Origin: Christensenellales bacterium
GTDB lineage: Bacteria; Bacillota; Clostridia; Christensenellales; UBA1431
Direction of reading: 5' to 3'
Length of the DNA: 64,000 nt
Assembly (NCBI GenBank): GCA_040772545.1
Contig: JAXGXY010000004.1
Span: forward strand, 25,613 to 89,612
Of the stretch, positions 1 through 48,276 are shown in pieces. Under the pieces are notes generated by a model. That model ran no database searches and was not told where the DNA came from. It was given only the letters and a program-made list of their open reading frames with translations. Each line of letters begins with the position of its first letter. Positions within the stretch are counted from its first letter, which is position 1. The translations under genes and the position numbers were made by a program.

Positions 1-1
1 T

Positions 2-778
2 ATCCGCTCGAACCCGGCGCAGCCGCGGCGGACGTTCAGCGATCAATCCATCGAGGAGCTGGCGCTTTCCATACGCAGTTACGGGCTGTTACAGCCGGTC
101 TCCGTGCGCATGTGCGGCCAAAACGACTACGAACTCATCGCCGGGGAGCGCAGGCTAAGGGCCGTAAAGAGGCTCGGGGAGAAAAAAATCAGCGCCATCG
201 TATTTCCGGCACAAGAGAAAGAGAGCGCGATCCTCGCCCTGGTCGAGAACCTGCAGCGCGAGGACCTGAACTATTTCGACGAGGCCCAGGCCTATTACGA
301 GATCCTGCGCGAACACGGAATGACGCAGGAGGAATTGGCGCGCTGCCTGTGCAAGAACCAGTCGACCGTGGCCAACAAGCTGCGCCTTTTGCGCGTGGGA
401 AGGCCGGTGCGCGAGGTTGCGGAGAAAAACGGGCTTACCGAGAGGCACGTGCGGGCGCTGCTGCGGCTTGCCGACGAAAAGACCCAGCTTTTGATCGCGC
501 AAAAAGCCGCCGCGCAGACGCTTTCCGTGAAGCAAACGGAAGCGCTGGTCGAACGCGCCGTGGAAGAGGTGACCCGCGGGAAAAAACCCAATGTGCGCCT
601 TATTCACAGGGACTACCGCCTGTTTGTCAATTCGATAAGGAGCACCGTGAAACAGCTGAACACGCAGGGGCTGAACGTGGATTTTACGACGAAGGATTTG
701 GGGGAATCCATTGAGATAAAGGTTGTCGTTTCAAAATCATTGAAAGGAGAGAGTGTGAGAGGTAGGGGGATCCGCTAA
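2..778 (+). CDS. ParB/Noc-family DNA-binding protein (ParB paralog upstream of soj); 5' end runs off the window
   Basis: Frame 2 is open from nt 2. The translation IRSNPAQPRRTF..ELALSIRSYGLLQPVSVR, ELIAGERRLRA and VENLQREDL are ParB N-terminal box motifs. These are followed by an HTH (QEELARCLCKNQSTVANKLRLL). The position directly upstream of soj-parB mirrors noc-soj-spo0J. Track ORF 104..778 is only the internal-Met version. Confidence 0.85.
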   Translation: MRSNPAQPRRTFSDQSIEELALSIRSYGLLQPVSVRMCGQNDYELIAGERRLRAVKRLGEKKISAIVFPAQEKESAILALVENLQREDLNYFDEAQAYYEILREHGMTQEELARCLCKNQSTVANKLRLLRVGRPVREVAEKNGLTERHVRALLRLADEKTQLLIAQKAAAQTLSVKQTEALVERAVEEVTRGKKPNVRLIHRDYRLFVNSIRSTVKQLNTQGLNVDFTTKDLGESIEIKVVVSKSLKGESVRGRGIR

Positions 779-814
779 GATCGGTTCCGCGAAAATTTCA
801 TATCGGGCCTGCCG

Positions 815-862
815 GGAGCCTGTCCACTTCCATGCGAATGGACAGGCTCCGTCTTTGCGTTT
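815..862 (+). terminator. Rho-independent terminator after the ParB paralog
   Basis: GGAGCCTGTCCA (815-826) pairs perfectly with TGGACAGGCTCC (839-850) across a 12-nt loop. A T-rich tail gtctttgcgttt follows. Confidence 0.6.
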
Positions 863-944
863 AGGCCTCGTCCGACAGCCAAAAAAGCGGGCGCGCCCGT
901 CCGCCGCGCGGAGACGTTTTGCCGACGGCCGATGGCTTTTTGCC

Positions 945-973
945 TTGTTGCCGTGCGATTTATATTCTATAAT
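945..973 (+). promoter_or_regulatory. Candidate sigma-A promoter for soj-parB
   Basis: TTGTTG (945-950), a 17-nt spacer, then a perfect TATAAT (968-973), about 50 nt upstream of the soj start. Confidence 0.4.
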
Positions 974-1022
974 AAGTGTGCGGAATAAAAAACCGCCGAA
1001 GTTTGCATTGGAGTGAACGCCG

Positions 1023-1799
1023 TTGTCCAAAGTGATGGCCGTAGCCAACCAAAAAGGCGGTGTGGGGAAGACGACGACCACCGTAAACTGCAGCGCCGCC
1101 CTTGCTCTGCGGGGGAAACGCGTGCTGGTGGTGGACGTCGACCCGCAGGGAAACTCCACGAGCGGACTGGGGCTGAACAGGGACGACGGGCAACTCTCGG
1201 TCTACGACGTGCTGGTGAACGGCGCCCCGATCGAAGACGCGGTATTGCCCACGCAGGTGGAGGGACTTTTCGCCGTCCCTTCGGCGGTGAAGCTAGCGGG
1301 CGCCGAAGTGGAAATGGTTTCGATGGAACGGCGCGAGTACATCGTCAAGAACGCGCTGAGGAAAATCCGCGGCGGGTACGACTTCATCTTCATGGACTGT
1401 CCCCCTTCGCTGGGGCTGTTGACGGTCAACGCCCTGACCGCGGCCGATACGGTGCTGGTCCCCATCCAGTGCGAATACTATGCGCTCGAGGGCGTCACGC
1501 AGCTCATCAACACGATACGCCTGGTAAAAAAGCGGCTCAACCCCGGCCTGGAAATAGAAGGCGTCCTGCTCACGATGTTTGACCCGAGGACGCGGCTGTC
1601 GCTGCAGGTGGTGGACGAGGTGAAGGCGTATTTCAAGCATAAGGTCTTCAGTTCGCTCGTCCCGCGCAATGTGCGGCTGGGGGAAGCGCCCAGCTTCGGG
1701 ATGCCCATCATGCTCTACGATTCCCAGTGCGCCGGGGCGCGCGCGTACGAGTATCTGGCCGAAGAGATCATAGAAAAGAACGAGGAGGCGGCGGTATGA
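1023..1799 (+). CDS. soj: Chromosome partitioning ATPase Soj/ParA
   Basis: Deviant Walker A motif MAVANQKGGVGKTTTTVN, plus VLVVDVDPQGNST and ParA-type C-terminal motifs. The TTG start gives an N-terminal length like Bacillus Soj. GGAG lies 9 nt upstream. Confidence 0.95.
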   Translation: MSKVMAVANQKGGVGKTTTTVNCSAALALRGKRVLVVDVDPQGNSTSGLGLNRDDGQLSVYDVLVNGAPIEDAVLPTQVEGLFAVPSAVKLAGAEVEMVSMERREYIVKNALRKIRGGYDFIFMDCPPSLGLLTVNALTAADTVLVPIQCEYYALEGVTQLINTIRLVKKRLNPGLEIEGVLLTMFDPRTRLSLQVVDEVKAYFKHKVFSSLVPRNVRLGEAPSFGMPIMLYDSQCAGARAYEYLAEEIIEKNEEAAV

Positions 1800-2680
1800 G
1801 CGCAAAGCAGCAGCGGCGGCTAGGAAAGGGGCTCCAGGCGCTTATAGGGTCCGAAGAACCCGTATGGGACGAGCGGCAGCCCGGCGAAAAGGGCGTGCGC
1901 CTCATCGACGTCCTGCGCATCGATCCCAACCCCAAGCAGGCGCGCAAACGCTTCGACAAGGAGGCGCTCGAAGGCCTCGCGCAATCCATAGCGATCCACG
2001 GCGTGATCCAGCCGCTGATCGTCGGGGAACAGGGGGAAAGGTACCGCCTGATCGCGGGCGAACGCCGGTGGCGGGCCGCCAAAATGGCGGGCCTGGACAG
2101 GGTGCCCGCCATCGTGACCGACATGGAGGACCGCGCGCAGGTGGAGGTATCGCTGGTGGAGAACCTTCAGCGCGAGGACCTCAACCCGCTCGAAGAGGCG
2201 GCGGGCATCAGATTCCTGATAGAAGAATACGGCCTGACGCAGGAGTCCGCGGCCGAGCGCGTCGGGAAGAGCCGCAGCGCCATAGCGAACGCGCTGAGGC
2301 TTTTGACGCTGCCTTCGCCCGTACAGGACCTGATCTGGACGGGGGAGTTAAGCGCAGGCCACGCGCGCGCCCTGGTCGGGATCGAAGACCAGGATCTTCA
2401 GCAGCGCATGGCAAAAAAGGCGGTCGAAGACGGGCTGTCGGTGCGCGAGATGGAAGCGCTTAAAAGAGACGTGCAGCCCGCGAGGCGCAGGAAGGCCGGC
2501 GATGAGGCGATCCCGCTGGAACTCTTCGAGATGCAGGAGTGCCTGCAAAAAGCGACAGGGATGCGCGTGCGGATCGTGGGAAGCACAAACAGGGGCAGGA
2601 TCACGATAGAATACTACAACAGGGAAGAGATCGAACGGCTCTACGCGATCTTGCAGGACAAAGACGAATGTTTCACGTGA
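1796..2680 (+). CDS. parB: Chromosome partitioning protein ParB/Spo0J
   Basis: MSAKQQRRLGKGLQALI..IDPNPKQARKRFD..LIAGERRWRAAK..VENLQREDLNPLEEA, HTH and C-terminal dimerisation region. The ATG at 1796 overlaps the soj stop (ATGA). The track start at 1727 is an unlikely extension. Confidence 0.95.
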   Translation: MSAKQQRRLGKGLQALIGSEEPVWDERQPGEKGVRLIDVLRIDPNPKQARKRFDKEALEGLAQSIAIHGVIQPLIVGEQGERYRLIAGERRWRAAKMAGLDRVPAIVTDMEDRAQVEVSLVENLQREDLNPLEEAAGIRFLIEEYGLTQESAAERVGKSRSAIANALRLLTLPSPVQDLIWTGELSAGHARALVGIEDQDLQQRMAKKAVEDGLSVREMEALKRDVQPARRRKAGDEAIPLELFEMQECLQKATGMRVRIVGSTNRGRITIEYYNREEIERLYAILQDKDECFT

Positions 2681-2684
2681 AACG
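2669..2684. promoter_or_regulatory. parS: parS centromere site (15/16 match to TGTTTCACGTGAAACA), overlapping the parB stop codon
   Basis: tGTTTCACGTGAAACg. The 14-bp palindromic core is perfect. The parB TGA (2678-2680) lies inside it. Bacillus also carries a parS inside spo0J. Confidence 0.85.
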
Positions 2685-2686
2685 CG

Positions 2687-3110
2687 CCGGAGCAAACTCC
2701 GCACCATCGTCGGAGCAAACTCCGCACCGCTCACCTTCGCGCAAGCGCAAAGGCTCGCTCGCTCCGTTGCTCCTCCTCTTCCCCGCAAAGCTGCGCTTTG
2801 CGGGGAGTTGTTCGGGCGGAGCTTCGTAGGATTGTCCGGGCGAGGCATCGCGGCAAGTTGCTTGGGTGGGGCTTTGCGGGGGTTGTTCGGGATGGGCTTC
2901 GCTCGTCGGAGCAAACTCCGCACCGCTCACCTTCTCGCAAGCGCAAAGGTTCGCTCGCTCCGTTGCTCCTCCTCTTCCCCGCAAAGCTATGCTTTGCGGG
3001 GAGTTGTTCGAGCGGAGCTTCGTAGGATTGTCCGGGCGAGGCATCGAAGCAAGTTGCTTGGGCGGGGCTTCACGGGAGATGTTTAAGCAGGGCTTCGAGT
3101 GATGGTTCGG
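2687..3110 (-). repeat. Type I hairpin-cassette repeats, two tandem ~196-bp units
   Basis: CGGAGCAAACTCCG hairpins occur at 2688, 2711 and 2907. CCCCGCAAAGC-nnn-GCTTTGCGGGG hairpins occur at 2781-2805 and 2977-3001, giving a 196-bp period. The sequence is the reverse complement of modules in 8994-10161. Confidence 0.9.
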
Positions 3111-3328
3111 ACGGGGCATTGGGGAATTCCTTAGGGAAAGCCTTCGCGAGCGCAGCGCGTTACCTCATCTTCCTGCACAGCGCCGCTATGCTGGGGTTTC
3201 GGCGCGAAGGGCTCTGTAGTATTATTTAAGCGGGGCTGCGAAGGGGTTTGGAAGGCGTAAACAGACACCGCGCAACCCACACTGCACGCGGTTATATGCG
3301 GCGCAAGAGAAGAAACCCGTAAACGGAT

Positions 3329-6674: not shown

Positions 6675-7511
6675 ATGATTCCTTTTACGAAGATGCACGG
6701 CCTGGGGAACGACTTCGTCCTCGTCGAGAGCCGCCACCTGGAAGGCATGGACGTTGCGGAAGCGGCCAGGCGCATGTGCGAGAGGCATACGGGTATCGGC
6801 GCGGACGGCCTGCTGATCGTCACGCCGTCCAAAAGGGCGGACATCGGGATGCGGATCATCAACAGGGACGGGACGGAGGCCGAGATGTGCGGCAACGGCA
6901 TCCGCTGCCTGGCGCGCTACGCCTACGACTGCGACCTCGTGAAGGAAGAGTGCTTCTGTGTGGAAACGCTCGCGGGGATCCTCCGGCCGAGGCTCGGGTT
7001 CGGAAGGGACGGCGAGGTGCTCTGTGTGGAGGTGGACATGGGCGCCCCGGTCCTCGAGCGCGCCATGATACCGATGACGGGGCCGAAAGGCCGCGTGCTC
7101 GACGAACCGCTGGACACTAATATGGGGGCGGTCCGCCTGAGCATGGTGCGCATGGGCGTTCCGCACGCGGTCGTTTTCGTGGACGACATCGGCGACGTCG
7201 GCGTCGAGGCGCTCGGGAGGGCGGTGGAGACGCACCCGGCGTTCCCGGAAAGGACCAACGTCAATTTCGTCGAGGTCCTCGGCGAAGGCGAGATCGCGGT
7301 GCGCACGTGGGAACGCGGCGCAGGCGCCACCCTCGCGTGCGGCACCGGCGTCTGCGCGAGCGCCGTGGCCGCGAACCTTCTGGGGCGCACAGAGAAAAGG
7401 GTCAGGGTCCGGCTCGAGCTGGGCACGCTCGAAATCACCCTAGCAAAAGACGGGCGCGTGCTGATGAAGGGACCGGCCCAGTACGTGTTCGAAGGGGAGT
7501 ACCAGCTTTGA
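6675..7511 (+). CDS. dapF: Diaminopimelate epimerase
   Basis: MIPFTKMHGLGNDFVLVE, catalytic CGNGIRCLARY and a second Cys in ACGTGVCA. AGAGGA RBS precedes the ATG at 6675. The track start at 6660 is less likely. Confidence 0.93.
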   Translation: MIPFTKMHGLGNDFVLVESRHLEGMDVAEAARRMCERHTGIGADGLLIVTPSKRADIGMRIINRDGTEAEMCGNGIRCLARYAYDCDLVKEECFCVETLAGILRPRLGFGRDGEVLCVEVDMGAPVLERAMIPMTGPKGRVLDEPLDTNMGAVRLSMVRMGVPHAVVFVDDIGDVGVEALGRAVETHPAFPERTNVNFVEVLGEGEIAVRTWERGAGATLACGTGVCASAVAANLLGRTEKRVRVRLELGTLEITLAKDGRVLMKGPAQYVFEGEYQL

Positions 7512-8938
7512 TACGGCTTCCGGATTGGACCATCCCGGTCACCGACGCCTTCGCGCGCGCGGGCGTGGACCTTTACGTCGTGGGCGGCGGTGTGCGAAAC
7601 CCGCTCCTCGGCCTTGGCACCTCGGAGCTCGACATGTGCTCGGGGCTGATGCCCGACGGGCTGACGGAGCTTTTAAGGGACGTACAGGGCGTGCGCGCGA
7701 CGGTGATAAGCCGCGAACTCGGCACGGTCCGCATAGACGTAGAGGGCGCAAAAGGCCGATTCATAGAGCATACGGTACTCAGGACGGAAAACTACGGCGG
7801 GGGCGGGCACCACCGCCCAAATAGGGTAAAAACGGGGGTTTCGATCGAAGAAGACGCCGGCAGGCGCGATTTCACCGTCAACGCGGTCTATTACGACGTG
7901 GCGCGCAAAAAGGTCCTCGACCCCGTGGGCGGCCTCAAAGACATCGAAAACAGGCGGATACGGACCGTGCGGGAAGACACGCTGTTTGATGACGCGCTGC
8001 GCATCCTCAGGATGGTGCGCTTCGCCTGCGAACTCGGCTTCACGATAGAGGAAGCGACGTTTAAGGCCGCGGCCCGAAACGTCGACATGCTCCGCGACAT
8101 AGCGCCCGAGCGCAGGGCGGAGGAGCTCTCCAAAATCCTTTTGAGCGACGCGAAGTACGCCCCGCCCGAACAAGCGGACGGGGCGGCCTGCCTGCGCGGG
8201 CTGGAGCTTCTCAGGGACCTGGGCGCGCTTGAGTTTTTGCTGCCCCACCTCGAGGGGGGACGGGGGTTTTCGCAACCGAACGAATACCACCAGTACGACG
8301 TCCTATACCACAACTTCTATACCTGCCGCCACATGCCCCCGGTGCTCCACCTGCGCCTCGCCGGACTGCTGCACGACGTGGGCAAGCCTGAGGCCTATGA
8401 GCAGGACGGCAATTTCTACGAGCACGCCCGTGTCGGCTCGGCGCTTGCCGCCGGGATGCTGGGCCAGGACGGCCTGCGCTTCAAGAAGGCGCTCGTCGAA
8501 AGGGTATGCCTGCTGATAGAAGAACATATGTTCGACCTTGACGGCAGTGCGAAGGAGACCACGGTGCGGCTGCGTTTCGCGACGCTTGGCCTTCCGGTCG
8601 CGTGCGAACTCCTGTGGCTGCGCCGCGCGGACATACTGGGCTCGCGCGAGGGGAACAGCGCCGAGTTCTTCATCCGCAAATGGGGGAGCGTGCTGCTGGC
8701 GCTGCAAAGGGACGGGACGCCGCCTTCACCGGACGCGCTCGAGATAGGCGGCGAGGACATCATGCGGGTCTGCGGCCTCGGCCCCGGCGAACGGGTCGGC
8801 CTGATAAAAGAAAGGCTCTGGCGGCACTGCGTGTACGACCCGCGCCAGAACACGCGCGAGCGGCTCCTTCGGCGGGCCGTGAGCCTGAACCGTGAACTGC
8901 CGCCCGGCATGACGAAGAAAGCCAAAAAGAAGCGATAA
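7508..8938 (+). CDS. cca: CCA-adding enzyme / poly(A) polymerase-family tRNA nucleotidyltransferase with HD domain
   Basis: VVGGGVRNPLLG, RRDFTVNAVYYD and LLHDVGKP (HD) motifs. The TTG at 7508 overlaps the dapF stop. The track ORF start at 7307 lies inside dapF. Confidence 0.85.
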   Translation: MIRLPDWTIPVTDAFARAGVDLYVVGGGVRNPLLGLGTSELDMCSGLMPDGLTELLRDVQGVRATVISRELGTVRIDVEGAKGRFIEHTVLRTENYGGGGHHRPNRVKTGVSIEEDAGRRDFTVNAVYYDVARKKVLDPVGGLKDIENRRIRTVREDTLFDDALRILRMVRFACELGFTIEEATFKAAARNVDMLRDIAPERRAEELSKILLSDAKYAPPEQADGAACLRGLELLRDLGALEFLLPHLEGGRGFSQPNEYHQYDVLYHNFYTCRHMPPVLHLRLAGLLHDVGKPEAYEQDGNFYEHARVGSALAAGMLGQDGLRFKKALVERVCLLIEEHMFDLDGSAKETTVRLRFATLGLPVACELLWLRRADILGSREGNSAEFFIRKWGSVLLALQRDGTPPSPDALEIGGEDIMRVCGLGPGERVGLIKERLWRHCVYDPRQNTRERLLRRAVSLNRELPPGMTKKAKKKR

Positions 8939-8993
8939 TCGGGGCAACAAACCTCGTTTGCGTTTTGCAGGCCGCCGACAAACACGTCATTGG

Positions 8994-10161
8994 TCGACCT
9001 GTTTTCTATGTGGCGGCAGTATTTGCCGCGCACTCCATGGCAAAGTCCATCCCGAACAACTCCCGCAAAGCCTCGCCCGGACAATCCTACGAAGCCCCGC
9101 CTAAAACAAAACCTACGAAGCCCCGCCCGAACAACTTCCGACGAAGCCTATCCTGAAAAATCCCTGCAAAGCCCTACCAGAATGAACCCCCGCAAAGCGC
9201 AGCTTTGCGGGGAAGAGGAGGAGCAACGGAGCGGTGCGAAGAATCCCCGGAGAGCGCGGAGCGCAAAGGGGATTATGAGCGGAGCGAAGTTTGCTCCGAC
9301 GAGGGAGCGGTGCGAAGAATCCCCGGAGCGCGGAGCGCAAAGGGGATTATGAGCGGAGCGAAGTTTGCTCCGACGAGGGAGCGATGCGAAGAATCCCCGG
9401 AGCGCGGAGCGCAAAGGGGATTTTGAGCGGAGCGAAGTTTGCTCCGACGATGGTGCGAAGTTTGCTCCGACGAGCGAAGCCCAGCCAGAGCAATGCCCGC
9501 AAAGCCCCGCTTGGACAAACCTACGAAGCCCTGCCTAAAACAAAACCTACGAAGTCCCGCCCGAACAACTTCCCGCGAAGCCTATCCTGAAAAATCTCTG
9601 CAAAGCCCTACCAGAATGAATCCCCGCAAAGCGTAGCTTTGCGGGGAAGAGGAGGAGCAACGGAGCGGTGCGAAGAATCCTCGGAGCGCGGAGCGCAAAG
9701 GGGATTATGAGCGGAGCGAAGTTTGCTCCGACGATGGTGCGAAGTTTGCTCCGACGAGCGAAGCCCAGCCAGAGCAATGCCCGCAAAGCCCCGCTTTGAC
9801 AATCCTACGAAGTCCCGCCCGAACAACTTCCCGCGAAGCCTATCCTGAAAAATCTCTGCAAAGCCCTACCAGAATGAATCCCCGCAGAGCGCAGCTTTGC
9901 GGGGAAGAGGAGGAGCAACGGAGCGGTGCGAAGAATCCCCGGAGCGCGAAGCGCAAAGGGGATTATGAGCGGAGCGAAGTTTGCTCCGACGAGGGAGCGG
10001 TGCGAAGAATCCCCGGAGCGCGAAGCGCAAAGGGGATTATGAGCGGAGCGAAGTTTGCTCCGACGAGGGAGCAGTGCGAAGAATCCCCGGAGCGCGAAGC
10101 GCAAAGGGGATTATGAGTGGAGCGAAGTTTACTCCGACGATGGTGCGAAGTTTGCCCGACG
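8994..10161 (+). repeat. Type I hairpin-cassette repeat array (nested tandem repeats)
   Basis: There are three super-units, each with a CCCCGCAAAGC-nnn-GCTTTGCGGGG hairpin (9188-9212, 9622-9646, 9880-9904). These are followed by 3, 1 and 3 copies of a 74-bp unit, starting at 9236/9312/9386, 9669, and 9928/10002/10076. Boundaries are approximate. Confidence 0.9.
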
Positions 10162-10180
10162 CATTGGATAATGCTATAAT
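10152..10180 (+). promoter_or_regulatory. Candidate sigma-A promoter of the SBP gene; its -35 lies in the repeat terminus
   Basis: TTGCCC (10152-10157), 17-nt spacer, perfect TATAAT (10175-10180). GGAGGA RBS and the ATG at 10202 follow. Confidence 0.5.
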
Positions 10181-10201
10181 TTCCTAAACACGGAGGAAAC
10201 C

Positions 10202-11026
10202 ATGGTCGATCTGAAAAACATCGATTTTGTGAGACTATTCAAAACCGGCGGGAAAATACTCATCGCGGCAGTCGTGCTCGTGGTGCTGCTGCTGCTTTTC
10301 GGCGGGCCGGCGGAAGACGCCGGGGCTTCGCGCTTCGAACAGCTCCTGGGGCGCGGCGTGCTCCGGGCTGGCGTGAGCGAGGACATGCCCAAACTGGGCC
10401 TCTATACGAACGGCAGCGTACAGGGCCTGGAAGCGGACCTGGCCAGACATATCGCAAAGGACATCTTCGGCGAGGGAAGCGAACCGATGCTTTTGCCTTA
10501 CAACGAGCAGACGCGGCAGTACGCGCTGGATAACGGGGAGGCCGACCTGCTGATCTGCAGGCTGTCCAAAGCCGATGTCCCCGAGGACACGTACATCTTT
10601 TCGGACCCCTATTTCATCGACGCGGTAAGTTTCATGGCCAGGGACGGGGATACGATGACTCTCGAGGACCTCAACGGGAAAAAAGTCGCCTGTATCTACA
10701 ACGCCAGCGCGCAGGACGAGTTCGTCAGCGAGGTGAAAAAACGCGGGCTGACGCTGCAGGTGGTCGAATACGCGTCCTACCCCGAAGCGGTGGAGGCGCT
10801 GCAAAAAGGCGCCGTCGACGCCTTTGCCGAGCATACCCTCGTGCTCAGCAAATACCTAAAATCCGGGTACACGATGTCCGCCGATCGTTTCGCGCCGCAG
10901 GAACTCTGCGTGGCGGCCCTGCCCGGGGACGAGGAACTGATGCAGTGCGTGCAGGAAACGCTGCGTGCCCTGGAGCAGAGCGGACAGATGGGGGCGCTGA
11001 GGAAGAAATGGGGCCTGCTCGGCTGA
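10202..11026 (+). CDS. Family-3 solute-binding protein (amino-acid-type SBP), membrane-anchored
   Basis: N-terminal TM helix (ILIAAVVLVVLLLLF) followed by an SBP_bac_3-like body (GVLRAGVSEDMPKLG..GLEADLARHIAKDI..GEADLLI..DPYF). No permease or ATPase gene is adjacent. Confidence 0.75.
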   Translation: MVDLKNIDFVRLFKTGGKILIAAVVLVVLLLLFGGPAEDAGASRFEQLLGRGVLRAGVSEDMPKLGLYTNGSVQGLEADLARHIAKDIFGEGSEPMLLPYNEQTRQYALDNGEADLLICRLSKADVPEDTYIFSDPYFIDAVSFMARDGDTMTLEDLNGKKVACIYNASAQDEFVSEVKKRGLTLQVVEYASYPEAVEALQKGAVDAFAEHTLVLSKYLKSGYTMSADRFAPQELCVAALPGDEELMQCVQETLRALEQSGQMGALRKKWGLLG

Positions 11027-11986: not shown

Positions 11987-14900
11987 ATGCGGGTCCTCTA
12001 TGTTAAGTATTCGACCCTCAGGAAGAGGGAATACCGCATCTGCACGCAGATCGTGGAGCGGGACGGCGCGCGGTTGGTGCGCAAGGTGCCCGCCGTGCCT
12101 GAAGCCCTTGCCCACGTGGAGGCGATGGCGCACAACGCGCGGCGCATGCGCGAGCGGACCGTGGGGCTGACGGTCCCGCCCTGCACGGTGGAGGGCGGCG
12201 CGTTCGAGACGCCCTATGTCGAAGGCGCGGCGCTGGATTGCCTGATTACGGAAGCGGCAAAAACGGGCGGCGCGGGCGGCGTTTGCCGTATCCTGGACGA
12301 TTACCGGGAACTGGTAAGGGCCCAGCCGCGGGTCGAAACCGACCCCGGCGCCTGCCCCGGCTTTGCCCGGTGGTTCGGCGAAAGCGTGGGCAGGGCCGAC
12401 TGCCTCGCGCTGGGGATGGTCGACCTCGTGACCGAGAACATCGTGTGCACGCCCGAAGGAAGCTTCGCCGCCATCGATTACGAATGGCTCTGCGACTGCC
12501 CCGTGCCCGTCGATTACGTCTTCCACCGCGCCGTGCGCCTGCTGTACCTGCACCACCGGGACGTATTAGAGCCCGTGATGACTCCGGGCGAAATGCTCGC
12601 GAGGCTCGGCGTAAGCCCCGCTTCCTCCGCCGCGTTCGAAGCCTGGGACAACAGGATGGACGAGCGCATCCAGGGGGACCCGCGCCTGCTCCCCGTCCCG
12701 CCCCAGTACCTGCGCGACAAGTCCCGGCCCTTCGGCGGGGCGGGCAGGCTCTACTACGACACGGGGGAAGGGTACAGCGAAAACAGGAGCATAGACGCCG
12801 AAGGACCCCTTTACCGGTTCGAACTCCCGCCCGGCACGCGGGTGAGGGGCCTCAGGTTCGACCCCTGCGAGGGCGCGTACTGCGCCGCCGTGATCCGCGA
12901 GGCCTGGGCAGAAACCGACGGCGGGCGCGTCCGCCTGCGGTGCGTCGGCGGGAACGCCGCGCTGAAGGAAGGGGACGCGTACGTCTTTGCGACCAGGGAC
13001 CCGCAACTGCTGTTTAATGCGCCCGCCGGCGCCGTTTTCGCGGTCGGTATCGCGGCGGACGTGCGGCGGCCGGAAGCGGACGAGCTAGAACGGGCGCTGA
13101 AAGCGCAGCAGGAAGAGGCGCAGGCGATAGAGGCTGGTCATGGCCGAAACCGGCCGGCGGCGGAAAAGGGGAACCGGGAGCCCGGCGGGGCGCTCCTTCG
13201 GCCGGCGGCGCGCATCGAGGCGCTGGGCCATGGCCGGTATCGCGCGACGGCCCCCGACCCGCAGTTTTGCATCGGGCGCGGGTACGAGCCGGGCATCCTG
13301 CGCGTGGACTGGGCGGGGGACGCGGACTTCATCCTGCCGCTGAGGCTCTACTACGATACGGGCGAAGGGTTTACGGAAAACGGCTTCTTTAACGTCGGCG
13401 CGCTGGGCGCGGAAGCCAAAAGCGGGCATTGCTACCTCCGCCTCGAAAAAAGGGCGTCGCAGCTCCGCCTAGACCCCGGGGAAGGAACGGGCGATTTTAT
13501 TCTGACCGCTTTTTCGGTGACGCGCCCCGCCCCGCGGAGGCTGAAGCGCGACGCAATAAATGCGTACGCCGAGATGCAGGGCGTTCCTTTAAACAAAGCC
13601 CGCAAAGCGTATTCAAAAGACCCGCGCGCGGCGCTGCAGACGCTCATTGACCAGGGGTGCCCGGAGGTTTACGACCCGGAAAGAGCGTACCGCAGCTGGA
13701 TGCGGTACGTGGAAGGCGAAGCGGCGCCGGCGGGCGCGGAAGGGTCCGTGCGCATCTCGGTCGTGGTGCCGGTGTACGAGACCGGCGAGGCCATGCTCCG
13801 GGAGATGATCGGGTCCGTGCGCGCGCAGAGCCACGGGAACTGGCAGCTCTGCATCGCCGACGGCGGCAGCCGTTCGCCCCACGTGCGAAGGGTCCTCGAG
13901 GAAGCCATGCGGTCCGACGCGCGCGTACGCGTCGCGTTCCTCCCCGAAAACCGGGGCATCGCGGGCAACAGCAACGCGGCGCTGGCCCTGGCCGAAGGCG
14001 AATACGTCGCGCTGCTGGACCACGACGACGTCCTCGTGCCATTCGCCCTTTCCGAGGCGGCCCGCGCGATCGCCGGGCACGACCCCGACATGCTGTATTC
14101 GGACGAGGACAAGCTCACGGCCGACGGGAAGAGGCGGTTCATGCCCCACTTCAAACCGGACTGGGACGCCGAGCTTCTGCGCTCGTGCAACTATGTCGCG
14201 CACCTCCTCGTGGCCAGGCGCGCGCTGGTGGAGGCGGTCGGCGGTTTCCGCGAGGGTTTCGACGGGAGCCAGGACCACGACCTGATCCTCAGGCTCAGCG
14301 AAAAGGCTAATAAGATCGTGCACATCCCCAAAGTGCTCTACCACTGGCGGAGCCACGCGAAATCAACGGCCCTGCATGCTGGCGCGAAGGACTATGCGGC
14401 CGAAGCGAGGCGAAGGGCGGTCGGCGAGCACTGCGCGCGCGCCGGTGTCCCCGCGCGGGTGGAAACAGACGGGCGCTACGGCATCCTGCGCGTCCGTTAT
14501 GAGATCAGGCACCGGCCTTTCGTTTCCGTGGTCATAATTGGCGGTGAGGACGGAGACCTGACGCGCCTGAGCGCGGAGGCCGCCGCGCGCGCCGCAGGCT
14601 GGGACGATTACGAGATCGTCGTGCTTTCACGCCGGACAGGCCTGCCCGCCGGCGACGGGCGCGCGCGCTTCGTGGAATGCGCGGGCCGGGGCCGCAAAGC
14701 CGTGCTTTACGCAGGGGCCGAAGCGGCGAAGGGGAACGTGCTCGTGCTGATGGAGGCCGGCGTCGCGCCGGTTTCCGAAGGCTGGATCGGCGCGCTGTAC
14801 GAGCTTGGTCAGCGGGAGGACGCGGGCGCGGTAGGGTGCCTTCTGCGCTACCCGAACGGGGCCCTGCTGCACGCGGGCGTCGTGCCGGGGTTCATAGGCG

Positions 14901-15247
14901 AAAGCGGGTACGTGGGGGACAGGCGCCCCGCGGACGACCCGGGGTACATGGCGCGCGTCCTCTGCGCGCGCGAGACTGCGGCGGTTTCCGCTGCGTGCGT
15001 GATGGTCGGGAAAAGGACGCTGCTTTATGCCCTTCGCGAAACGGAGGGCGACGACCCGGGCGACGTGGCGCTCTTTGCGGCGGTACGCAGATCGGGCAGA
15101 CGCGTCTATTACACGCCGCACGCCCAATGCGTTTGGCACGGCGTGACGGCGCTCCCCGTACAGGGACCGGCGGACGTCGTCGATGACCCGTTTTACAGCC
15201 CGCATTTTACCCGCAGCGTCGAACCCTACAGGATCAGGGAAGAGTAG
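11987..15247 (+). CDS. Multidomain glycosyltransferase: kinase-like N-terminal domain, two copies of an internal repeat, then a GT2 domain plus a second GT-like domain
   Basis: GT2 signature ISVVVPVYETGEAML..IADGGS..NRGIAGNSNAALALAEGEYVALLDHDD. The N-terminus has an APH/kinase-like IDYEW motif. LYYDTGEG(Y/F)(S/T)EN...LR(F/L)DP.EG is repeated at nt ~12749 and ~13346. Confidence 0.85.
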   Translation: MRVLYVKYSTLRKREYRICTQIVERDGARLVRKVPAVPEALAHVEAMAHNARRMRERTVGLTVPPCTVEGGAFETPYVEGAALDCLITEAAKTGGAGGVCRILDDYRELVRAQPRVETDPGACPGFARWFGESVGRADCLALGMVDLVTENIVCTPEGSFAAIDYEWLCDCPVPVDYVFHRAVRLLYLHHRDVLEPVMTPGEMLARLGVSPASSAAFEAWDNRMDERIQGDPRLLPVPPQYLRDKSRPFGGAGRLYYDTGEGYSENRSIDAEGPLYRFELPPGTRVRGLRFDPCEGAYCAAVIREAWAETDGGRVRLRCVGGNAALKEGDAYVFATRDPQLLFNAPAGAVFAVGIAADVRRPEADELERALKAQQEEAQAIEAGHGRNRPAAEKGNREPGGALLRPAARIEALGHGRYRATAPDPQFCIGRGYEPGILRVDWAGDADFILPLRLYYDTGEGFTENGFFNVGALGAEAKSGHCYLRLEKRASQLRLDPGEGTGDFILTAFSVTRPAPRRLKRDAINAYAEMQGVPLNKARKAYSKDPRAALQTLIDQGCPEVYDPERAYRSWMRYVEGEAAPAGAEGSVRISVVVPVYETGEAMLREMIGSVRAQSHGNWQLCIADGGSRSPHVRRVLEEAMRSDARVRVAFLPENRGIAGNSNAALALAEGEYVALLDHDDVLVPFALSEAARAIAGHDPDMLYSDEDKLTADGKRRFMPHFKPDWDAELLRSCNYVAHLLVARRALVEAVGGFREGFDGSQDHDLILRLSEKANKIVHIPKVLYHWRSHAKSTALHAGAKDYAAEARRRAVGEHCARAGVPARVETDGRYGILRVRYEIRHRPFVSVVIIGGEDGDLTRLSAEAAARAAGWDDYEIVVLSRRTGLPAGDGRARFVECAGRGRKAVLYAGAEAAKGNVLVLMEAGVAPVSEGWIGALYELGQREDAGAVGCLLRYPNGALLHAGVVPGFIGESGYVGDRRPADDPGYMARVLCARETAAVSAACVMVGKRTLLYALRETEGDDPGDVALFAAVRRSGRRVYYTPHAQCVWHGVTALPVQGPADVVDDPFYSPHFTRSVEPYRIREE

Positions 15248-15273: not shown

Positions 15274-15611
15274 AAACTCCCGGCTGTGCCGCGGGTTTCA
15301 AAAAAGCTTAAATGCAGGGGGTGTGGGGGATAATCCCCCACTTCCAATCCGATCTGACGACTCGCCGGAGCAAAATTTGCACCGCTCATCTTCGCGCGGA
15401 GCGCAAAGGCTCGCTCGCTGCGCTCCACCCCAAGCGGCAAGCCGCGAGGGGACCCCGGTTGCTCCTCCACTTCCCCACAAAGCTCCGCTTTGAGGGGGCC
15501 CCGGAGGCAGAAAAATGCCACATGGAGCGGCATTAAACCACAAAGGAAACCGTCGACAAGCCTCGAAGGGATTTGTCGAGGGCCAGAAACCCCCGGCTGT
15601 GCCGGGGGTTT
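15274..15611. repeat. Composite repeat: type II element (15299-15586) interrupted by a type I segment (~15362-15508), bracketed by a duplicated 25-bp hairpin
   Basis: AAACTCCCGGCTGTGCCGCGGGTTT (15274-15298) versus AAACCCCCGGCTGTGCCGGGGGTTT (15587-15611) match at 23/25. The inner ends align with the reverse complement of 62264-62425. The middle carries the CGGAGCAAA.. and CCCCACAAAGC..GCTTTGAGGGG modules. Confidence 0.85.
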
Positions 15612-31340: not shown

Positions 31341-31412
31341 CGTCGGAGCAAACTCCCCGTTGCATAATCGCCTTTGCGCTTGCGCAAAGGCGAGCGGGTG
31401 CGGAGTTTGCGC
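31341..31412 (+). repeat. Solo type I module (long imperfect hairpin)
   Basis: CGGAGCAAACTCC...CGCCTTTGCGC-tt-GCGCAAAGGCG...GCGGAGTTTGC. It matches the reverse complement of 2711-2760. Confidence 0.75.
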
Positions 31413-31420
31413 AGGCGGGG

Positions 31421-43224: not shown

Positions 43225-46077
43225 ATGGCGAACACAACGGGGGGGAGCGGCGTGAAGAAACGGGTAGCGACGGTTTTACTCGCATTGCTGGTGATGCTCA
43301 GCGGTTGGACCTTATTGGATCCACAGACGGCATACGCGGCGTTCAATGGAATTATCAAGGTCCGCATATCGCCTTCCAATCACTCGTCCGACATCCGGGT
43401 CATACCCCACGGGAAGTATTTCATCGCCCAGGCGAAAAGCGTACAACTCCTCGACGTCGAGTACAAGGTCCACCGTTCGGGCAGCAACGTGCAGCTCAAG
43501 CACGGCGGCACGGTGCTCTATTCCGGGCCGAAGCTTACTATCACGCGCGCCGCCGGGAACACGGAGGAAAACTTCATCGTGTTTCCCTACAGCCCGACGC
43601 ATAAGACGCGCACGAACTACTACGGGAACATCGAGTTTTCGGTGAATTCGGGCCTGTGCGCGGTGAACCACGTCTACGTCGAAGACTACGTGATGGGCGT
43701 GGCCCCCTACGAGATGAGCCCGAGCTGGCCGGCGCAGGCGCTCAGGGCGCAGGCCGTCTGCGCGCGCAACTACGGCGTTCGGGCGGCGCTCGCGAGCCCC
43801 TCGGGGACCTGGCACCTCGGGGACACGGCAAGTTCGCAGGTCTACAAGGGCGTTCCGGGCGTGAGTTCGTCGGGGACCATCGACTACACCGCGTACAACA
43901 AAGTCAAGAGCGCCGTCGAGGGCACGTCCCGCAAGGTGATGAAGTACGACGGCGCCGTGTTTTCCGCGTACTACTCCGCCTGGAACGGCGGGGAGACGCT
44001 GAACGTACGCGGCTGGACGGGGAACACGTCGTCAGCCTACGGTTATACCGTCGTCAAATCCGACGTGTACGACGACAAGCGCTGCAAGGACGCCTACTGG
44101 ATCACGCGGACCATCAACACATCGCTTTATTCACCGACCGGCAACGACATCAACATGGCCGTGCAGAACATGCTCGTCAAAAAATACAGGGAGCAATACG
44201 GCGTTACGGCTGCCGATGTATACGTCGTGAGCACGACGGGGATCAAAGGGCAGAAGCCGTCCGGCGTGTCCGAAGTTTCGCTCGTCTACGAAAATTTCTA
44301 CTGCGATGTGAGGTTCAATACGGAGTCGGCCACCAAAAAGGTCACGTTCACGGACACTGACCTCAAGCAGGCCCTCGGCATCAGTTCCTCATACATTGCG
44401 TTCAGGATCGAGAATAATTCGGACGGCACGACGACGCTGTACAACGTGCGCTACGGCCACGGGGTGGGGATGAGCCAGCGCGGCGCGCAGCAGATGGCCA
44501 ACGAGGGCATGGGCCACACGGACATCCTGCGCTTCTACTACAACGGGATCACGTTCAGCACGCTTCCCGTTTCTCCGCCTTCGCTGCCGGCCATGCCGGA
44601 CCAGGGGTCGGAAACGGATAAGGAGTACGTCGGGAAAGTTATCAACTGCACCAGCTACGTAAACGTGCGCTCGGGCCCGGGCACCTCCTCGGCGCTGGTC
44701 GGCACGGCCCCGAAAAACGCCATATACCCCGTAAAAAAGGCGTATTATACGAGCGACTGGCATCAGATCGATTACAACGGCAAGACGGCGTACATCCACA
44801 GGGACTATCTCGCGCTGACGCCCGTGCAGCAGGACACGACGGCCAAGGCGGTAGGCAAGGCGACGCGCAGTTCGTACGTGTACGCATCGGCCACCACGAC
44901 GTCCAGCAAGCTGCTGGCGCTGGGAACGGGGAACCTCATGGACATCCTGGACGTTTCCGGCAACTTCTATAAAGTCGTTGCGGCGGGCAAGACGGGTTAT
45001 GTTCCGATTGCCCACGTGACCATCGTATCGGGCAGCGTAGCGGCGCCGACGCCGAAACCGACGCTGAAACCGACGCCGAAGCCGACGCCGAAACCCACGC
45101 CGAAGCCCACGCCGAAGCCCACGCCGAAGCCCACCGCGGCGTCGAAGGCGGTAGCCAAAGCCACGCGCTTCACGTACGTGTACAAGTCCTCCACGACCTC
45201 GTCGGCAAAGCTCCTCCAGCTCGGCCCCGGGAACCTGATGGACGTGCTGGGCACGGCGGGCAAACTCTATAAAGTGGTTGCGGCGGGAAAAACGGGGTAC
45301 GTGCCCATTTCCCACGTGTCGATCGTGTCGGGCAGCATATCGACGCCGAAGCCTACGCCCAAACCGACGCCGAAGCCTACGCCTAAGCCCACCCAGGCGT
45401 CGAAGGCAGTCGCCAAAGCCACGCGCTTCACGTACGTGTACAAGTCCGCTTCGACCTCGTCGACGAAGGTCCTTCAGCTCGGCACCGGAAACCTGATGGA
45501 CGTGCTGGGCACGTCGGGCAGCTACTATAAAGTGGTTGCGGCGGGGAAGACGGGGTACGTTCCGAAATCCCACTTGTCGATCGTATCGGGCAGCATATCG
45601 ACGCCTAAGCCTACGCCAAAACCGACGCCGAAACCCGCCGACACAAAAACAATAGGGAAAGTGGTCAACTGCAACAGCTACGTGAATGTGCGCTCGGGTC
45701 CCGGCACGTCGAAGGCGCTGGTCGGCACGGCCCCGAAGGGCGCGGAATATCCCGTGAAAAAGGCGTTCTATACGAGCAGCTGGCATCAGATCGAATACAA
45801 GGGCAAGACGGCATACATCCACAAGGACTATCTCAAGATTACGACAGCGCCGAAGCCGAAGCCTACCGCGGCGTCCAAAGCCGTGGCCAAAGCCACGCGC
45901 TTCACGTACGTGTACAAGTCCTCCACGACCTCGTCGTCGAAGCTGCTGAAGCTCGGCCCGGGGAACCTGATGGACGTGCTGGGCACGGCGGGCAAACTCT
46001 ATAAAGTGGTTGCGGCAGGCAAGACGGGGTACGTGCCCGTTTCCCACGTGTCGATCGTGTCGGGCAGCGTCAGCTAA
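43225..46077 (+). CDS. Secreted SpoIID/LytB-domain protein with six SH3b-like repeats and (K/T)P linkers
   Basis: Signal-like N-terminus, SpoIID motifs (YVEDYVMGVAPYEM, ALRAQAVCARNYG, YGHGVGMSQRGAQQMA), two NCxSYVNVRSGPGTS SH3b domains, four KATRFTYVYKS...GKTGYVP repeats, and KPTPKPTP linkers. Confidence 0.85.
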   Translation: MANTTGGSGVKKRVATVLLALLVMLSGWTLLDPQTAYAAFNGIIKVRISPSNHSSDIRVIPHGKYFIAQAKSVQLLDVEYKVHRSGSNVQLKHGGTVLYSGPKLTITRAAGNTEENFIVFPYSPTHKTRTNYYGNIEFSVNSGLCAVNHVYVEDYVMGVAPYEMSPSWPAQALRAQAVCARNYGVRAALASPSGTWHLGDTASSQVYKGVPGVSSSGTIDYTAYNKVKSAVEGTSRKVMKYDGAVFSAYYSAWNGGETLNVRGWTGNTSSAYGYTVVKSDVYDDKRCKDAYWITRTINTSLYSPTGNDINMAVQNMLVKKYREQYGVTAADVYVVSTTGIKGQKPSGVSEVSLVYENFYCDVRFNTESATKKVTFTDTDLKQALGISSSYIAFRIENNSDGTTTLYNVRYGHGVGMSQRGAQQMANEGMGHTDILRFYYNGITFSTLPVSPPSLPAMPDQGSETDKEYVGKVINCTSYVNVRSGPGTSSALVGTAPKNAIYPVKKAYYTSDWHQIDYNGKTAYIHRDYLALTPVQQDTTAKAVGKATRSSYVYASATTTSSKLLALGTGNLMDILDVSGNFYKVVAAGKTGYVPIAHVTIVSGSVAAPTPKPTLKPTPKPTPKPTPKPTPKPTPKPTAASKAVAKATRFTYVYKSSTTSSAKLLQLGPGNLMDVLGTAGKLYKVVAAGKTGYVPISHVSIVSGSISTPKPTPKPTPKPTPKPTQASKAVAKATRFTYVYKSASTSSTKVLQLGTGNLMDVLGTSGSYYKVVAAGKTGYVPKSHLSIVSGSISTPKPTPKPTPKPADTKTIGKVVNCNSYVNVRSGPGTSKALVGTAPKGAEYPVKKAFYTSSWHQIEYKGKTAYIHKDYLKITTAPKPKPTAASKAVAKATRFTYVYKSSTTSSSKLLKLGPGNLMDVLGTAGKLYKVVAAGKTGYVPVSHVSIVSGSVS
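44632..46074 (+). repeat. Intragenic domain repeats (near-identical at DNA level)
   Basis: 45139-45335 and 45868-46062 are almost identical nucleotide stretches. The CCGAARCCSACG (KPTP) micro-repeat spans 45049-45132 and recurs at ~45346-45390 and ~45603-45635. Confidence 0.85.
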
Positions 46078-47988: not shown

Positions 47989-48276
47989 GGTGCTAGCACC
48001 CGGCCAGACTATAAAACAAGCCGCGCCGCCGGGGTCGAGCGTTGTTTTGTCAAATAGAAGCTTTACCCGGAAGATTTCCACAGCGCTTTACCCAGGCAAA
48101 TCCTTCAAAACCTTGCACGAATGAATCCCACAGGGCCTCACCTGAACAAACCGCACAAAGCGAAGCTTTGGGCGGAAGAGGAGGAGCAACGGAGCGGTGC
48201 GAGGAACCCCCGACGCGCGCAGCGCATAGGGGGTTACGGGCGAAGCGGAGTTTGCTCCGACGTGGGTGCTAGCACC
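47989..48276 (+). repeat. Type I repeat element (48001-48264) bracketed by a duplicated 12-bp palindrome
   Basis: GGTGCTAGCACC occurs at 47989-48000 and again at 48265-48276. The interior carries a degenerate H1 hairpin (48151-48175), AAGAGGAGGAGCAACGGAGCG and the terminal CGGAGTTTGCTCCG (48246-48259). Confidence 0.85.

Follow-up and report, generated by a model that had tools for sequence, protein, structure and literature searches.

A nested tandem array beside cca in a Christensenellales bacterium belongs to a dispersed family of structured non-coding repeats

The BOX elements of Streptococcus pneumoniae are organized as boxA-boxB(n)-boxC, where the number of internal modules is variable and pairing of the 5' module with the 3' one yields a long hairpin in a transcript. 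In Neisserial intergenic mosaic elements (NIMEs), inverted dRS3 repeats flank the blocks; Correia elements and MITEs are characterized by a TA duplication and by terminal inverted repeats. REPs and BIMEs are high-copy extragenic hairpin repeats that form mosaic clusters with linker motifs (PMC3733652; PMC2817692; PMC3333891); CGTC-tagged REPs have no known dedicated transposase and were not reported from Firmicutes in a survey of these sequences (PMC3733652). Structured extragenic repeats have been much studied in Proteobacteria and pneumococci, but hardly in the uncultured Clostridia, which are dominant in guts and digesters. Here, we describe such a family, the starting point for which is a nested tandem array at positions 8994-10161 of a 64,000-nt stretch of DNA (hereafter, the window; GenBank assembly GCA_040772545.1, contig JAXGXY010000004.1, positions 25,613 to 89,612 of the forward strand) from a Christensenellales bacterium, the uncultured lineage of which is labelled either Christensenellales or Clostridiales by the sources. 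The family of this gut or digester bacterium is undescribed and widely shared. Its unit is dispersed, non-coding and structured in a strand-specific manner; the fold is well supported, insertion polymorphism is documented, and both local changes in copy number and exchange of one of the hairpins are observed. On balance, we favour the view that the array consists of clustered copies of a non-autonomous structured insertion element, resembling either the REP/BIME or the BOX repeats.

The array fills the 1263-bp spacer between cca and the gene for a family-3 solute-binding protein (SBP); this location, given by the original prediction from the sequence alone, is borne out by Pfam hits on both flanks (a PolyA_pol/HD gene with its last position at 8938, and an SBP_bac_3 gene from 10202 onwards). 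It is a nested direct array, in which each of three super-units runs 5' to 3' from an S leader of degenerate 25-26-nt repeats, through a hairpin (H1), a 23-nt purine core (K; GGAAGAGGAGGAGCAACGGAGCG) and three, one or three copies, respectively, of a 74-nt repeat, to a closing copy of the R motif. The 74-nt repeat itself consists of a second hairpin (H2) and R, a motif of 21 nt (GGAGCGAAGTTTGCTCCGACG). The array thereby contains three full 115-nt units and four additional 74-nt H2-R copies, together with additional 23-nt R copies and the 26-nt S leader repeats. The features of the spacer and its flanks are as follows:

7508-8938, + strand: cca, CCA-adding enzyme/poly(A) polymerase family (Pfam PolyA_pol, RNA-binding and HD domains); start transferred, with an offset of +201, from the 476-aa gene called in the identical contig L020.
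8940-8966, + strand: weak terminator-like hairpin and T-rich tail right after the cca stop (consensus scan only).
9040-9184, + strand: S leader 1, degenerate 25-26-nt sub-repeats (CCTACGAAGCCCCGCC..GAACAA); TRF period 26 at 9051-9174, S at 9086 and 9112.
9185-9301, + strand: full unit 1, with H1 at 9188-9212, K (GGAAGAGGAGGAGCAACGGAGCG) at 9211-9233, H2 with a 2-bp insertion, and R at 9281-9301 (cmsearch 133 bits, model positions 1-115).
9304-9375, + strand: additional H2-R, a 5'-shortened unit starting at GGAGCG of K (cmsearch model positions 44-102; R at 9355-9375).
9378-9449, + strand: additional H2-R copy (cmsearch, and R and H2 motif matches).
9452-9472, + strand: additional R (GGTGCGAAGTTTGCTCCGACG) closing super-unit 1 (R motif match).
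9473-9618, + strand: S leader 2, with S at 9520 and 9546; 91% identical to leader 1 (repeat family D5).
9619-9733, + strand: full unit 2, with H1 at 9622-9646, K at 9645-9667, H2 at 9675-9706 and R at 9713-9733 (cmsearch 141.5 bits; fold -57.9 kcal/mol, z -5.7).
9736-9756, + strand: additional R closing super-unit 2 (R motif match).
9757-9876, + strand: S leader 3, with S at 9804.
9877-9991, + strand: full unit 3, with H1 at 9880-9904, K at 9903-9925, H2 at 9933-9964 and R at 9971-9991 (cmsearch 141.9 bits).
9994-10065, + strand: additional H2-R copy (cmsearch, and R and H2 motif matches).
10068-10139, + strand: additional H2-R copy (cmsearch, and R and H2 motif matches).
10142-10161, + strand: terminal degenerate R (GGTGCGAAGTTTGCCCGACG), from the sequence; short-read contigs of relatives break inside it.
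10152-10180, + strand: promoter-like site of the SBP gene, TTGCCC, 17 nt, TGcTATAAT (consensus scan, 10/12 matches, extended -10); its -35 hexamer falls within the last R copy.
10202-11026, + strand: family-3 solute-binding protein (Pfam SBP_bac_3; 100% identical cluster representative).

The three super-units had been recognized by their H1 hairpins (CCCCGCAAAGCGCAGCTTTGCGGGG), and these are indeed present at 9188, 9622 and 9880 with 0-1 mismatch. The 3-1-3 pattern of H2 copies is also correct, and the 74-bp spacing assigned to them holds for most; the first spacing is 76 because the first H2 has a 2-bp insertion. For the H2 core (GAATCCCC-N17-GGGGATT) there are six matches at up to three mismatches, the seventh being this first copy. 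There are nine copies of R in the array, versus none expected from 100 shuffles, and none of the H1, H2 and R motifs is expected by chance. The closing sequence proposed for every super-unit, GATGGTGCGAAGTTTGCTCCGACG, is exact in the first two, but the third (10139-10161) is one base short (GTTTGCCCGACG). The leaders, described as carrying (C/T)CCCGCC-type sub-repeats, yielded five matches to CCTACGAAG(C/T)CC(C/T)GCC (9086, 9112, 9520, 9546 and 9804), again with a TRF period of 26; judged by eye, the sub-repeats of leader 1 are ~60% identical to R.

The open reading frames (ORFs) called over the array, of 50-120 aa, overlap one another on both strands and have TTG starts, and a search of 5.8 billion proteins with one of them as query retrieved only two similar predicted proteins: they are artefacts, as had been supposed, and the region is non-coding. 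All of the locus data derive from short-read metagenome assemblies, several of which break inside the terminal R, and the possibility of an assembly artefact had been raised from the outset. However, the 1263-bp spacer recurs unchanged in an independent JGI contig (L020; 99.88% identity over 20.8 kb), and an NCBI contig (L021; 99.1%) from a metagenome-assembled genome (MAG) matches the layout, as (>=2)-1-3, up to the contig end. Since both independently carry the same layout, the architecture is not an assembly accident.

What had been missed is that the array is a cluster of members of a dispersed, insertion-polymorphic family, which is also found in other orders and in phages; as a consequence, insertion and gene conversion, in addition to slippage, can shape it. 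A covariance model (R1), built from 11 gap-free units, detects seven full and four partial units in the window (cmsearch), including those at three further sites:

2685-3100, - strand: second array, two 196-bp super-units with full units at 2708-2808 and 2904-3004 and an extra R at 2685-2705 (repeat, motif and cmsearch matches).
2669-2684, no strand assigned: parS-like palindrome cGTTTCACGTGAAACa abutting the R end of the second array (sequence).
15363-15500, - strand: divergent single unit between convergent genes (cmsearch 41.9 bits).
48148-48262, + strand: single unit with compensated H1 and H2 variants, the R end of which abuts the palindrome GGTGCTAGCACC (cmsearch 130.6 bits).

In the second array, H1-K is identical to that of the main array, but H2 is different: the same H1-K is thus joined to different H2 hairpins within one window. 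A weak match to the model at 31366-31417 (14.5 bits, E 0.17), distant from all units, is probably due to chance. The parS-like palindrome lies just downstream of the second parB gene. Because the gene order at 1-3300 is rsmG(gidB)-parB-parA-parB and the GC skew is uniformly positive across the window, the sequence suggests that the window starts near the replication origin and lies on one replichore.

Beyond the window, model R1 gave 98 hits in 54 sources, in addition to one unit in each of 22 IMG/VR loci. The ~120 further units reside in Christensenellales-like metagenome contigs, MAGs of Acutalibacteraceae and Anaerovoracaceae, phages and a conjugative element. By our own estimate, ~0.02 exact matches to the K 23-mer would be expected by chance in 596 Gb. 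There are 37 such loci in metagenomes, and 11 in the GTDB species genomes, of which eight are in one Acutalibacteraceae MAG and the others in a Bacillota MAG contig (in a phage head module), an Anaerovoracaceae MAG and a Limnocylindria MAG; an 18-mer of K matched the 22 IMG/VR loci. At the Limnocylindria locus, model R1 finds no full unit at E <= 1e-4. This copy (L004 1277-1400, in a MAG labelled as Chloroflexota) has an exact core, H2 and an R-like end, with no H1, and lies right after a terminator; it could reflect transfer, mis-binning or a truncated unit. The loci collected with K all retain it together with the 3' motif AGCGnAGTTTGC(TC/GA)CGACG, and their H1 and H2 differ widely in sequence and still pair; copies found by the model only carry variants of K, e.g. 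GGAAGAGAAGGAGCAACGAAGCG and GGAAGTGGAGGAGCAAC. In phages, the unit is associated with head, connector, packaging and replication modules, and elsewhere it adjoins the coupling-protein gene of a type IV secretion system (T4SS).

The family corresponds to no RNA family of Rfam, no protein family and no publication in the resources that we searched. Rfam gave no match at E <= 1 over 8900-10250; across the window, it assigned the unit to no family at the gathering score, and at E <= 0.1 it did the same for the phage, Acutalibacteraceae and Anaerovoracaceae variants (seven loci); the same scans confirmed 5S rRNA, the 3' end of 23S rRNA and tRNAs beside units. A BLAST search with the unit against phages returned one unannotated faecal phage scaffold, carrying a full unit, and against plasmids there was no match; a literature search with the core sequence produced only chance matches.

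Two observations concern related or neighbouring repeats. The family has a second, divergent member (core GAGAGGAGCAGCCCTGAAGCGG), present at L066 968-1067, L106 2619-2718 and L110 3008-3107, ~90 nt from the insertion site between the phage HNH and terS genes that is described below; in L066, it is convergent with the main unit. In the Acutalibacteraceae MAG (L002, L005, L010 and L001), other hairpin modules recur beside units, namely, ccttcccct-tga-ggggaagg, gtcgctcatgccgcgacgggcac and gatgaggtgtaa, such that this genome has mosaic arrays of several repeat families; additionally, there is a deletion between two GCGGATGAG repeats in L010.

Each unit is ~100-115 nt long, and its 5' part is an A-rich or S-type leader. 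This is followed by H1, which forms helix P1 (11-12 bp, closed by a C-GNA-G triloop), and then by the single-stranded purine core AAGAGGA. In helix P2, GGAGCAAC of K pairs with GtTTGCTCC of R, leaving a conserved bulged T. The long irregular helix contains a conserved 3x3 loop of GGA opposite GNA, a GC/GC step and GA-rich symmetric loops; its tip is the exchangeable H2 hairpin, and the 3' end of the unit reads ...CGACG. Single units fold alike, at ~-55 to -58 kcal/mol per unit (z ~-5.6), in agreement with the stable hairpins anticipated for this region. Alignment with plain MAFFT and RNAalifold put the hairpins out of register and gave a poor consensus, and a model-based alignment of 98 hits was used instead. 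In this alignment, standard pairs occupy 94.6% of cells, versus 81.5% in column shuffles and 34-49% for slid partners, and 31 of the 35 pairs have double-sided changes (265 compensatory cells). Compensations in H1 and H2 are also visible in the unaligned sequences (CCATGCAAAGC/GCTTTGCATGG, CCCTGAAAAGC/GCTTTTCAGGG and CCCACGAAGTC/GACTTCGTGGG). The fold belongs to the K strand, since G.U cells greatly outnumber A.C cells (148 versus 28) and the complementary strand folds 6-13 kcal/mol more weakly as RNA.

Nearly all of the hairpin loops are C-(G/A)NA-G triloops. As single-stranded DNA, GC-GNA-GC minihairpins have exceptional stability, whereas in RNA they are unremarkable; this is a hint, although not proof, that the relevant molecule may be single-stranded DNA. 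Two further ideas were dropped: a CsrA sponge, which the many GGA motifs might recall (the loop triplets vary between GNA and ANA, and GGA is not conserved in the loops), and a K-turn (the internal loops are symmetric).

One line of evidence for insertion comes from the spacer between the HNH and terS genes of a phage lineage, where ~12 sequences from the viral scan carry one unit and 44 IMG/VR loci, found with a gapped pattern of both flanks, are empty. The empty site reads ...tgtaaaaataaacaGGGGATATACCCCgtttg... and the filled site ...tgtaattaattGGGG[CCCCCCGCAAAG...GCGACGACGA]GGGATATACCCCgtttg...; the unit is an indel of ~105 nt flanked by GGG(G). Across the 363 kb of empty-site loci, model R1 matched only twice, and weakly both times. 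In one prophage (UViG 2784746797_000001), the HNH-terS site is empty (L128) and a unit is instead located between the head-tail adaptor and head-closure genes (L077). Two types of H2 occur at one phage insertion with a common odd junction. The window unit at 15.4 kb is absent from L014 and L024 by alignment, where the flanks are messy and give no exact boundaries; for the phage Ad1-Hc1 insertion, searches found no empty site. Nested units, lying inside the 3' arm of the H2 of another unit, are seen in L031, L034 and L037. Moreover, a unit directly follows the tRNA-Asn gene in L049 and L045, where L033 has a terminator instead.

Copy number at fixed sites also changes. Contigs related to the window were reached via the proteins of the 90% cluster of the SBP, and compare as follows between cca and the SBP gene:

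Window: spacer 1263 bp, layout 3-1-3.
L020, 99.88% identical to the window: spacer 1263 bp, layout 3-1-3.
L021, 99.1% identical: contig begins within the array; layout identical over the part that it covers.
L014, L015 and L016, ~95-96% identical: spacer 582 bp, with five S, one H1-K, two H2 and four R.
L024, ~97% identical: spacer 375 bp, with one S, one H1-K, one H2 and two R.

There are, therefore, at least three length alleles (1263 bp with three super-units, 582 bp with one super-unit and two H2, and 375 bp with one super-unit and one H2). The suggestion that the locus is hypervariable is upheld only as far as the existence of these alleles: they belong to separate lineages that are ~3-5% diverged, and the three assemblies that are >=99% identical agree, which makes this variation between lineages and not evidence of rapid hypervariability. 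Six Logan short-read contigs break off within the terminal R, 70-108 nt before the SBP gene begins. In the more distant relative L012 (GCA_049324235.1), where the SBP is 72% identical, an FGGY-family kinase gene lies between cca and the SBP gene (L012 7392-10000), and no units are present anywhere in its 20.8 kb. At another site, the single full unit of L036 corresponds to two in L029 (98.4% identical), and L051 and L057 (84%) have units on both sides of the same iPGM gene, in two versus three copies; these differences, too, are between lineages and not within a strain.

Several units end precisely at other structured sequences. Four or five units meet a convergent tRNA gene without any intervening base, their R end (...CGACG) lying directly against its CCA end: tRNA-Trp in L036, tRNA-Met in L038, tRNA-Asn in L045 and L049 (possibly one orthologous site), and tRNA-Ile in L041, where the unit is truncated. 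The R end also lies against a parS-like palindrome at 2669-2684 in the window and in L014, L024 and L052, against the palindrome GGTGCTAGCACC at 48.26 kb, against the 5' end of 5S rRNA in L049 and L027, and against the 3' flank of 23S rRNA in L041. The units in 23S-5S spacers are at L049 1-620, L027 and L046 1-700, and L041 300-700; that of L049 ends 4 nt before mature 5S rRNA, and in the related operon of L041 the unit has the opposite orientation, against the 23S flank. Of 74 ends, 55 have A or T immediately 3' of CGACG (AGG 13 times and TGG seven times), and the other strand accordingly reads CC(A/T)|CGTC. A preference for CCW (W = A or T) next to structured DNA is thus shown in part, as a pattern of individual cases. 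By a strict criterion, only 7 of the 74 R ends are directly followed by a perfect stem of >=5 bp, compared with 5% in controls; given the weakness of this general test, we claim targeting only for the documented cases.

With respect to neighbouring genes, units between co-directional genes are K-sense in 12 cases and antisense in three, with a further 10 units between convergent and nine between divergent genes; these counts rest on a crude gene caller. Two antisense placements are firm, namely, those in the phage HNH-terS spacer and in the 23S-5S spacer of L041 (the units of its relatives L027 and L049 are in sense). Read on the complementary strand, H1 and the T-rich tail behind it match an intrinsic-terminator pattern (consensus scan), and the predominance of K-sense units is explained if this terminator-like strand is selected against in operons. 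A K-strand transcript, for its part, would gain a 5' hairpin and a strong Shine-Dalgarno (SD)-like site. In L007 (twice, for phrog_24113 and a major head gene) and in L062 (a T4SS coupling protein), a start codon lies exactly 2 nt after CGACG with no other SD sequence; as judged from sequence, these three mobile-element genes appear to use the unit as their only ribosome-binding site, and P2 would bring the SD beside the start codon. Such effects on the host would presumably be side effects.

How might these units spread? We envisage that they would move via a single-stranded intermediate of one particular strand and be mobilized in trans, for which, by analogy with REP/RAYT and IS200/IS605, an HUH/Y1 enzyme would be the most plausible kind. 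Once in place, the direct 74-nt (H2-R), 23-nt (R) and 26-nt (S) repeats may expand and contract by replication slippage or unequal recombination, and H2 may be swapped between copies by gene conversion; together, these processes would produce the nested 3-1-3 layout and the length alleles.

A number of points weigh against an insertion element. Among the families listed for 115 unit-flanking ORFs, no transposase, reverse transcriptase or integrase recurs, and, of the 90 families matched by these ORFs, all lying up to 2.5 kb from a unit, the 25 listed do not include Y1_Tnp; the only enrichment is of TerS/HNH of one phage lineage and of housekeeping families. Nor was an autonomous copy, with K and R enclosing an ORF, present in ~1 Mb of loci, which contained only nested or truncated units. 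Terminal inverted repeats are absent: the leader with H1 and the ...CGACG ends are not complementary, and the only long-range complement, of K with R, is internal to the unit. The ends of the element are defined only to a few bases. In the comparison of empty and filled phage sites, ~10 nt at the H1-side junction also differ, and simple cut-and-insert is unproven; we read these nucleotides as the element's own leader, because an A/T-rich stretch and GGGG also precede H1 at internal tandem junctions. Similarly, the GGG(G) on both sides of the phage insertion, and the W-GGG/W-GG flanks that are common elsewhere, fit a target duplication and a target plus element end equally well. The weak stem test at the R end belongs here too, as does the finding that, despite the uniformly positive GC skew, two of the window loci are on the + strand and two on the - strand, albeit a small sample. 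Furthermore, collecting copies with K as bait biases both the apparent invariance of K and the taxonomic range, the structural alignment was fitted to model R1, and the strong conservation of the core and internal loops across orders could signify an RNA function, beyond that of a recognition site.

This last point leads to a functional cis-acting RNA module that has spread for its usefulness: it would stabilize mRNA or recruit ribosomes, form a split ribosome-binding site, or serve for processing or insulation within operons, rRNA spacers and the late operons of phages, the tandem array being a multivalent ribosome- or protein-binding RNA. By our own reading, 8 nt at the 3' end of 16S rRNA are complementary to the core AGAGGAGG, and the G.U-rich strand-specific fold, the conserved purine loops, the three start codons 2 nt after CGACG, the 12 to 3 sense bias and the retention of the unit at one phage site across diverged phages all sit well with such a role. 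However, the firm antisense copies make an obligatory cis-RNA role unlikely; most copies have no start codon after them, the unit has neither its own promoter nor terminator in the K direction, presence/absence is polymorphic with no conserved gene partner, and the triloops are of a type that is ordinary in RNA. We, therefore, consider this an unlikely account of the family. A different role for RNA, in which the unit is retro-mobile or self-processing and copies are made from its 3' end, would explain the head-to-tail arrays and the 3'-co-terminal nested fragments (full unit, H2-R and R), since partial units always keep the 3' end and start at the same point in K (model positions 44-102); conserved nucleotides in junctions and internal loops between covarying helices are also reminiscent of small ribozymes, and the fold is strand-specific. 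Yet slippage between GGAGCG direct repeats explains the same partial units, the families listed for the flanking ORFs include no reverse transcriptase, no ribozyme or other family of Rfam matches any variant, and host promoters would not transcribe the antisense copies in the right sense, all of which renders spread through RNA quite improbable.

Were the array simply an inert satellite, generated by slippage at this spacer alone and devoid of mobility or function, the perfectly periodic 74-nt and 23-nt repeats and the length alleles between lineages would be as observed; the units at three other sites in the window, in unrelated taxa, in phages and in a conjugative element contradict this, as do compensatory changes that preserve the fold, and we regard it as very improbable. 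The regularity of the repeats, together with ORFs of up to 120 aa that are open on both strands, might suggest a repeat-protein gene, a CRISPR or integron-like array, or an assembly artefact, but we attach almost no weight to any of these: the 74-nt period is not a multiple of 3, next to no similar proteins are predicted, and three independent assemblies agree on the layout. In a CRISPR array, unique spacers would separate the repeats; here, the repeats abut and the S segments are themselves repeats. As regards integron attC sites, GAGCAAC and GTTTGCT do not fit RYYYAAC and GTTRRRY, and the tandem units are without cassette ORFs.

Three other features of the window lie apart from the units. 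The 258-bp tandem repeats at 44783-46072 are coding, and correspond to three SH3_3 repeats of a 950-aa SpoIID-domain protein (43225-46077, + strand); a 552-aa ORF on the opposite strand has no Pfam match and is probably spurious. ARAGORN calls a tRNA-Val at 12140-12222, inside an ORF for a 1086-aa glycosyltransferase (11987-15247); this is probably a false positive, since Rfam at the gathering score gives no tRNA in the window.

The family has some practical bearing. Its conservation across orders, its occurrence in phages and a conjugative element, the clean presence/absence at a phage site and the exact placement at tRNA 3' ends provide a tractable case for studying the movement and targeting of repeats that lack a transposase. 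Units break short-read assemblies at predictable places and yield strain-level length markers; they may also donate ribosome-binding sites, terminators or -35 boxes to adjoining genes. The covariance model and consensus allow units to be annotated in place of spurious ORF calls.

Returning to the described systems, the unit shares with IS200/IS605 derivatives (PATEs) subterminal hairpins on one strand at both ends (H1, and P2/R) and the lack of terminal inverted repeats, as well as the absence of a clear target duplication, the bulged T in P2, a short conserved flank and a single-strand logic. It differs in that no tnpA/tnpB partner was seen among the families listed near units and no autonomous copy in ~1 Mb of loci, in that H1 and R/P2 are unlike each other, whereas the left and right end hairpins of these elements are alike, and in forming tandem arrays; moreover, since units of the window occur on both strands under a uniform GC skew, the lagging-strand bias of IS200/IS605 is not seen there. 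The likeness to NIMEs, Correia elements and MITEs lies in blocks parted by a ~20-nt repeat, intergenic mosaics, and effects on termination and mRNA that the unit may also have; the unit has neither the inverted dRS3 repeats nor the terminal inverted repeats and TA duplication. SPRITE and other terminator-like repeats recall the intrinsic-terminator pattern on the K-complement, but only one end of the unit is terminator-like and the rest is without counterpart.

Like REPs and BIMEs, the units are strand-specific imperfect palindromes in mosaic clusters of extragenic hairpins. The resemblance extends to the CGTC-tagged REPs: the reverse complement of R starts with CGTCGGAGCAAACTTCGCTCC, in which CGTC is unpaired, and the complement of the unit thus presents CGTC followed by a small palindrome (CGTC GGAGC AAACTTC GCTCC), often flanked by CCA or CCT. 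However, the unit is 100-115 nt in length with helices P1-P5, compared with a palindrome of 20-40 bp, and only the 21-23-nt R sub-repeat, with a stem of 5 bp, is REP-sized; the units within each array are all on one strand, and do not alternate as in BIMEs, and no RAYT is seen among the families listed near units. It is possible, though we hold this tentatively, that the units represent a new structure-dependent class of mobile element, belonging to Clostridia and to the phages of these bacteria and separate from MITEs, REP/RAYT and derivatives of IS200/IS605: such an element would insert directly 3' of CCA/CCT beside folded DNA, including tRNA gene ends, would depend on an undiscovered enzyme, an RNA intermediate or a self-processing RNA, and would be a portable module, with a 5' hairpin and SD on one strand and a terminator on the other, that phages and conjugative elements have taken up as ribosome-binding sites.

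With BOX, the units have in common a Firmicute host, an intergenic, non-coding location, differences in copy number between strains and, potentially, the capacity to alter the expression of neighbours. The modular plan is also matched, in that the arrangement here is K-(H2-R)n, with n = 1-3, and K pairs with R as A does with C. In contrast to BOX, there is an extra 5' hairpin, H1, and an SD-like invariant core, with no terminal inverted repeats, and the family spans several orders and phages, whereas BOX is confined to one genus; the comparison is one of description, and no sequence similarity is claimed. We file the family as a structured extragenic mosaic repeat that is no member of any named family. 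By analogy, its closest counterpart in architecture is the pneumococcal BOX element, and in genomic behaviour the REP/BIME mosaics.

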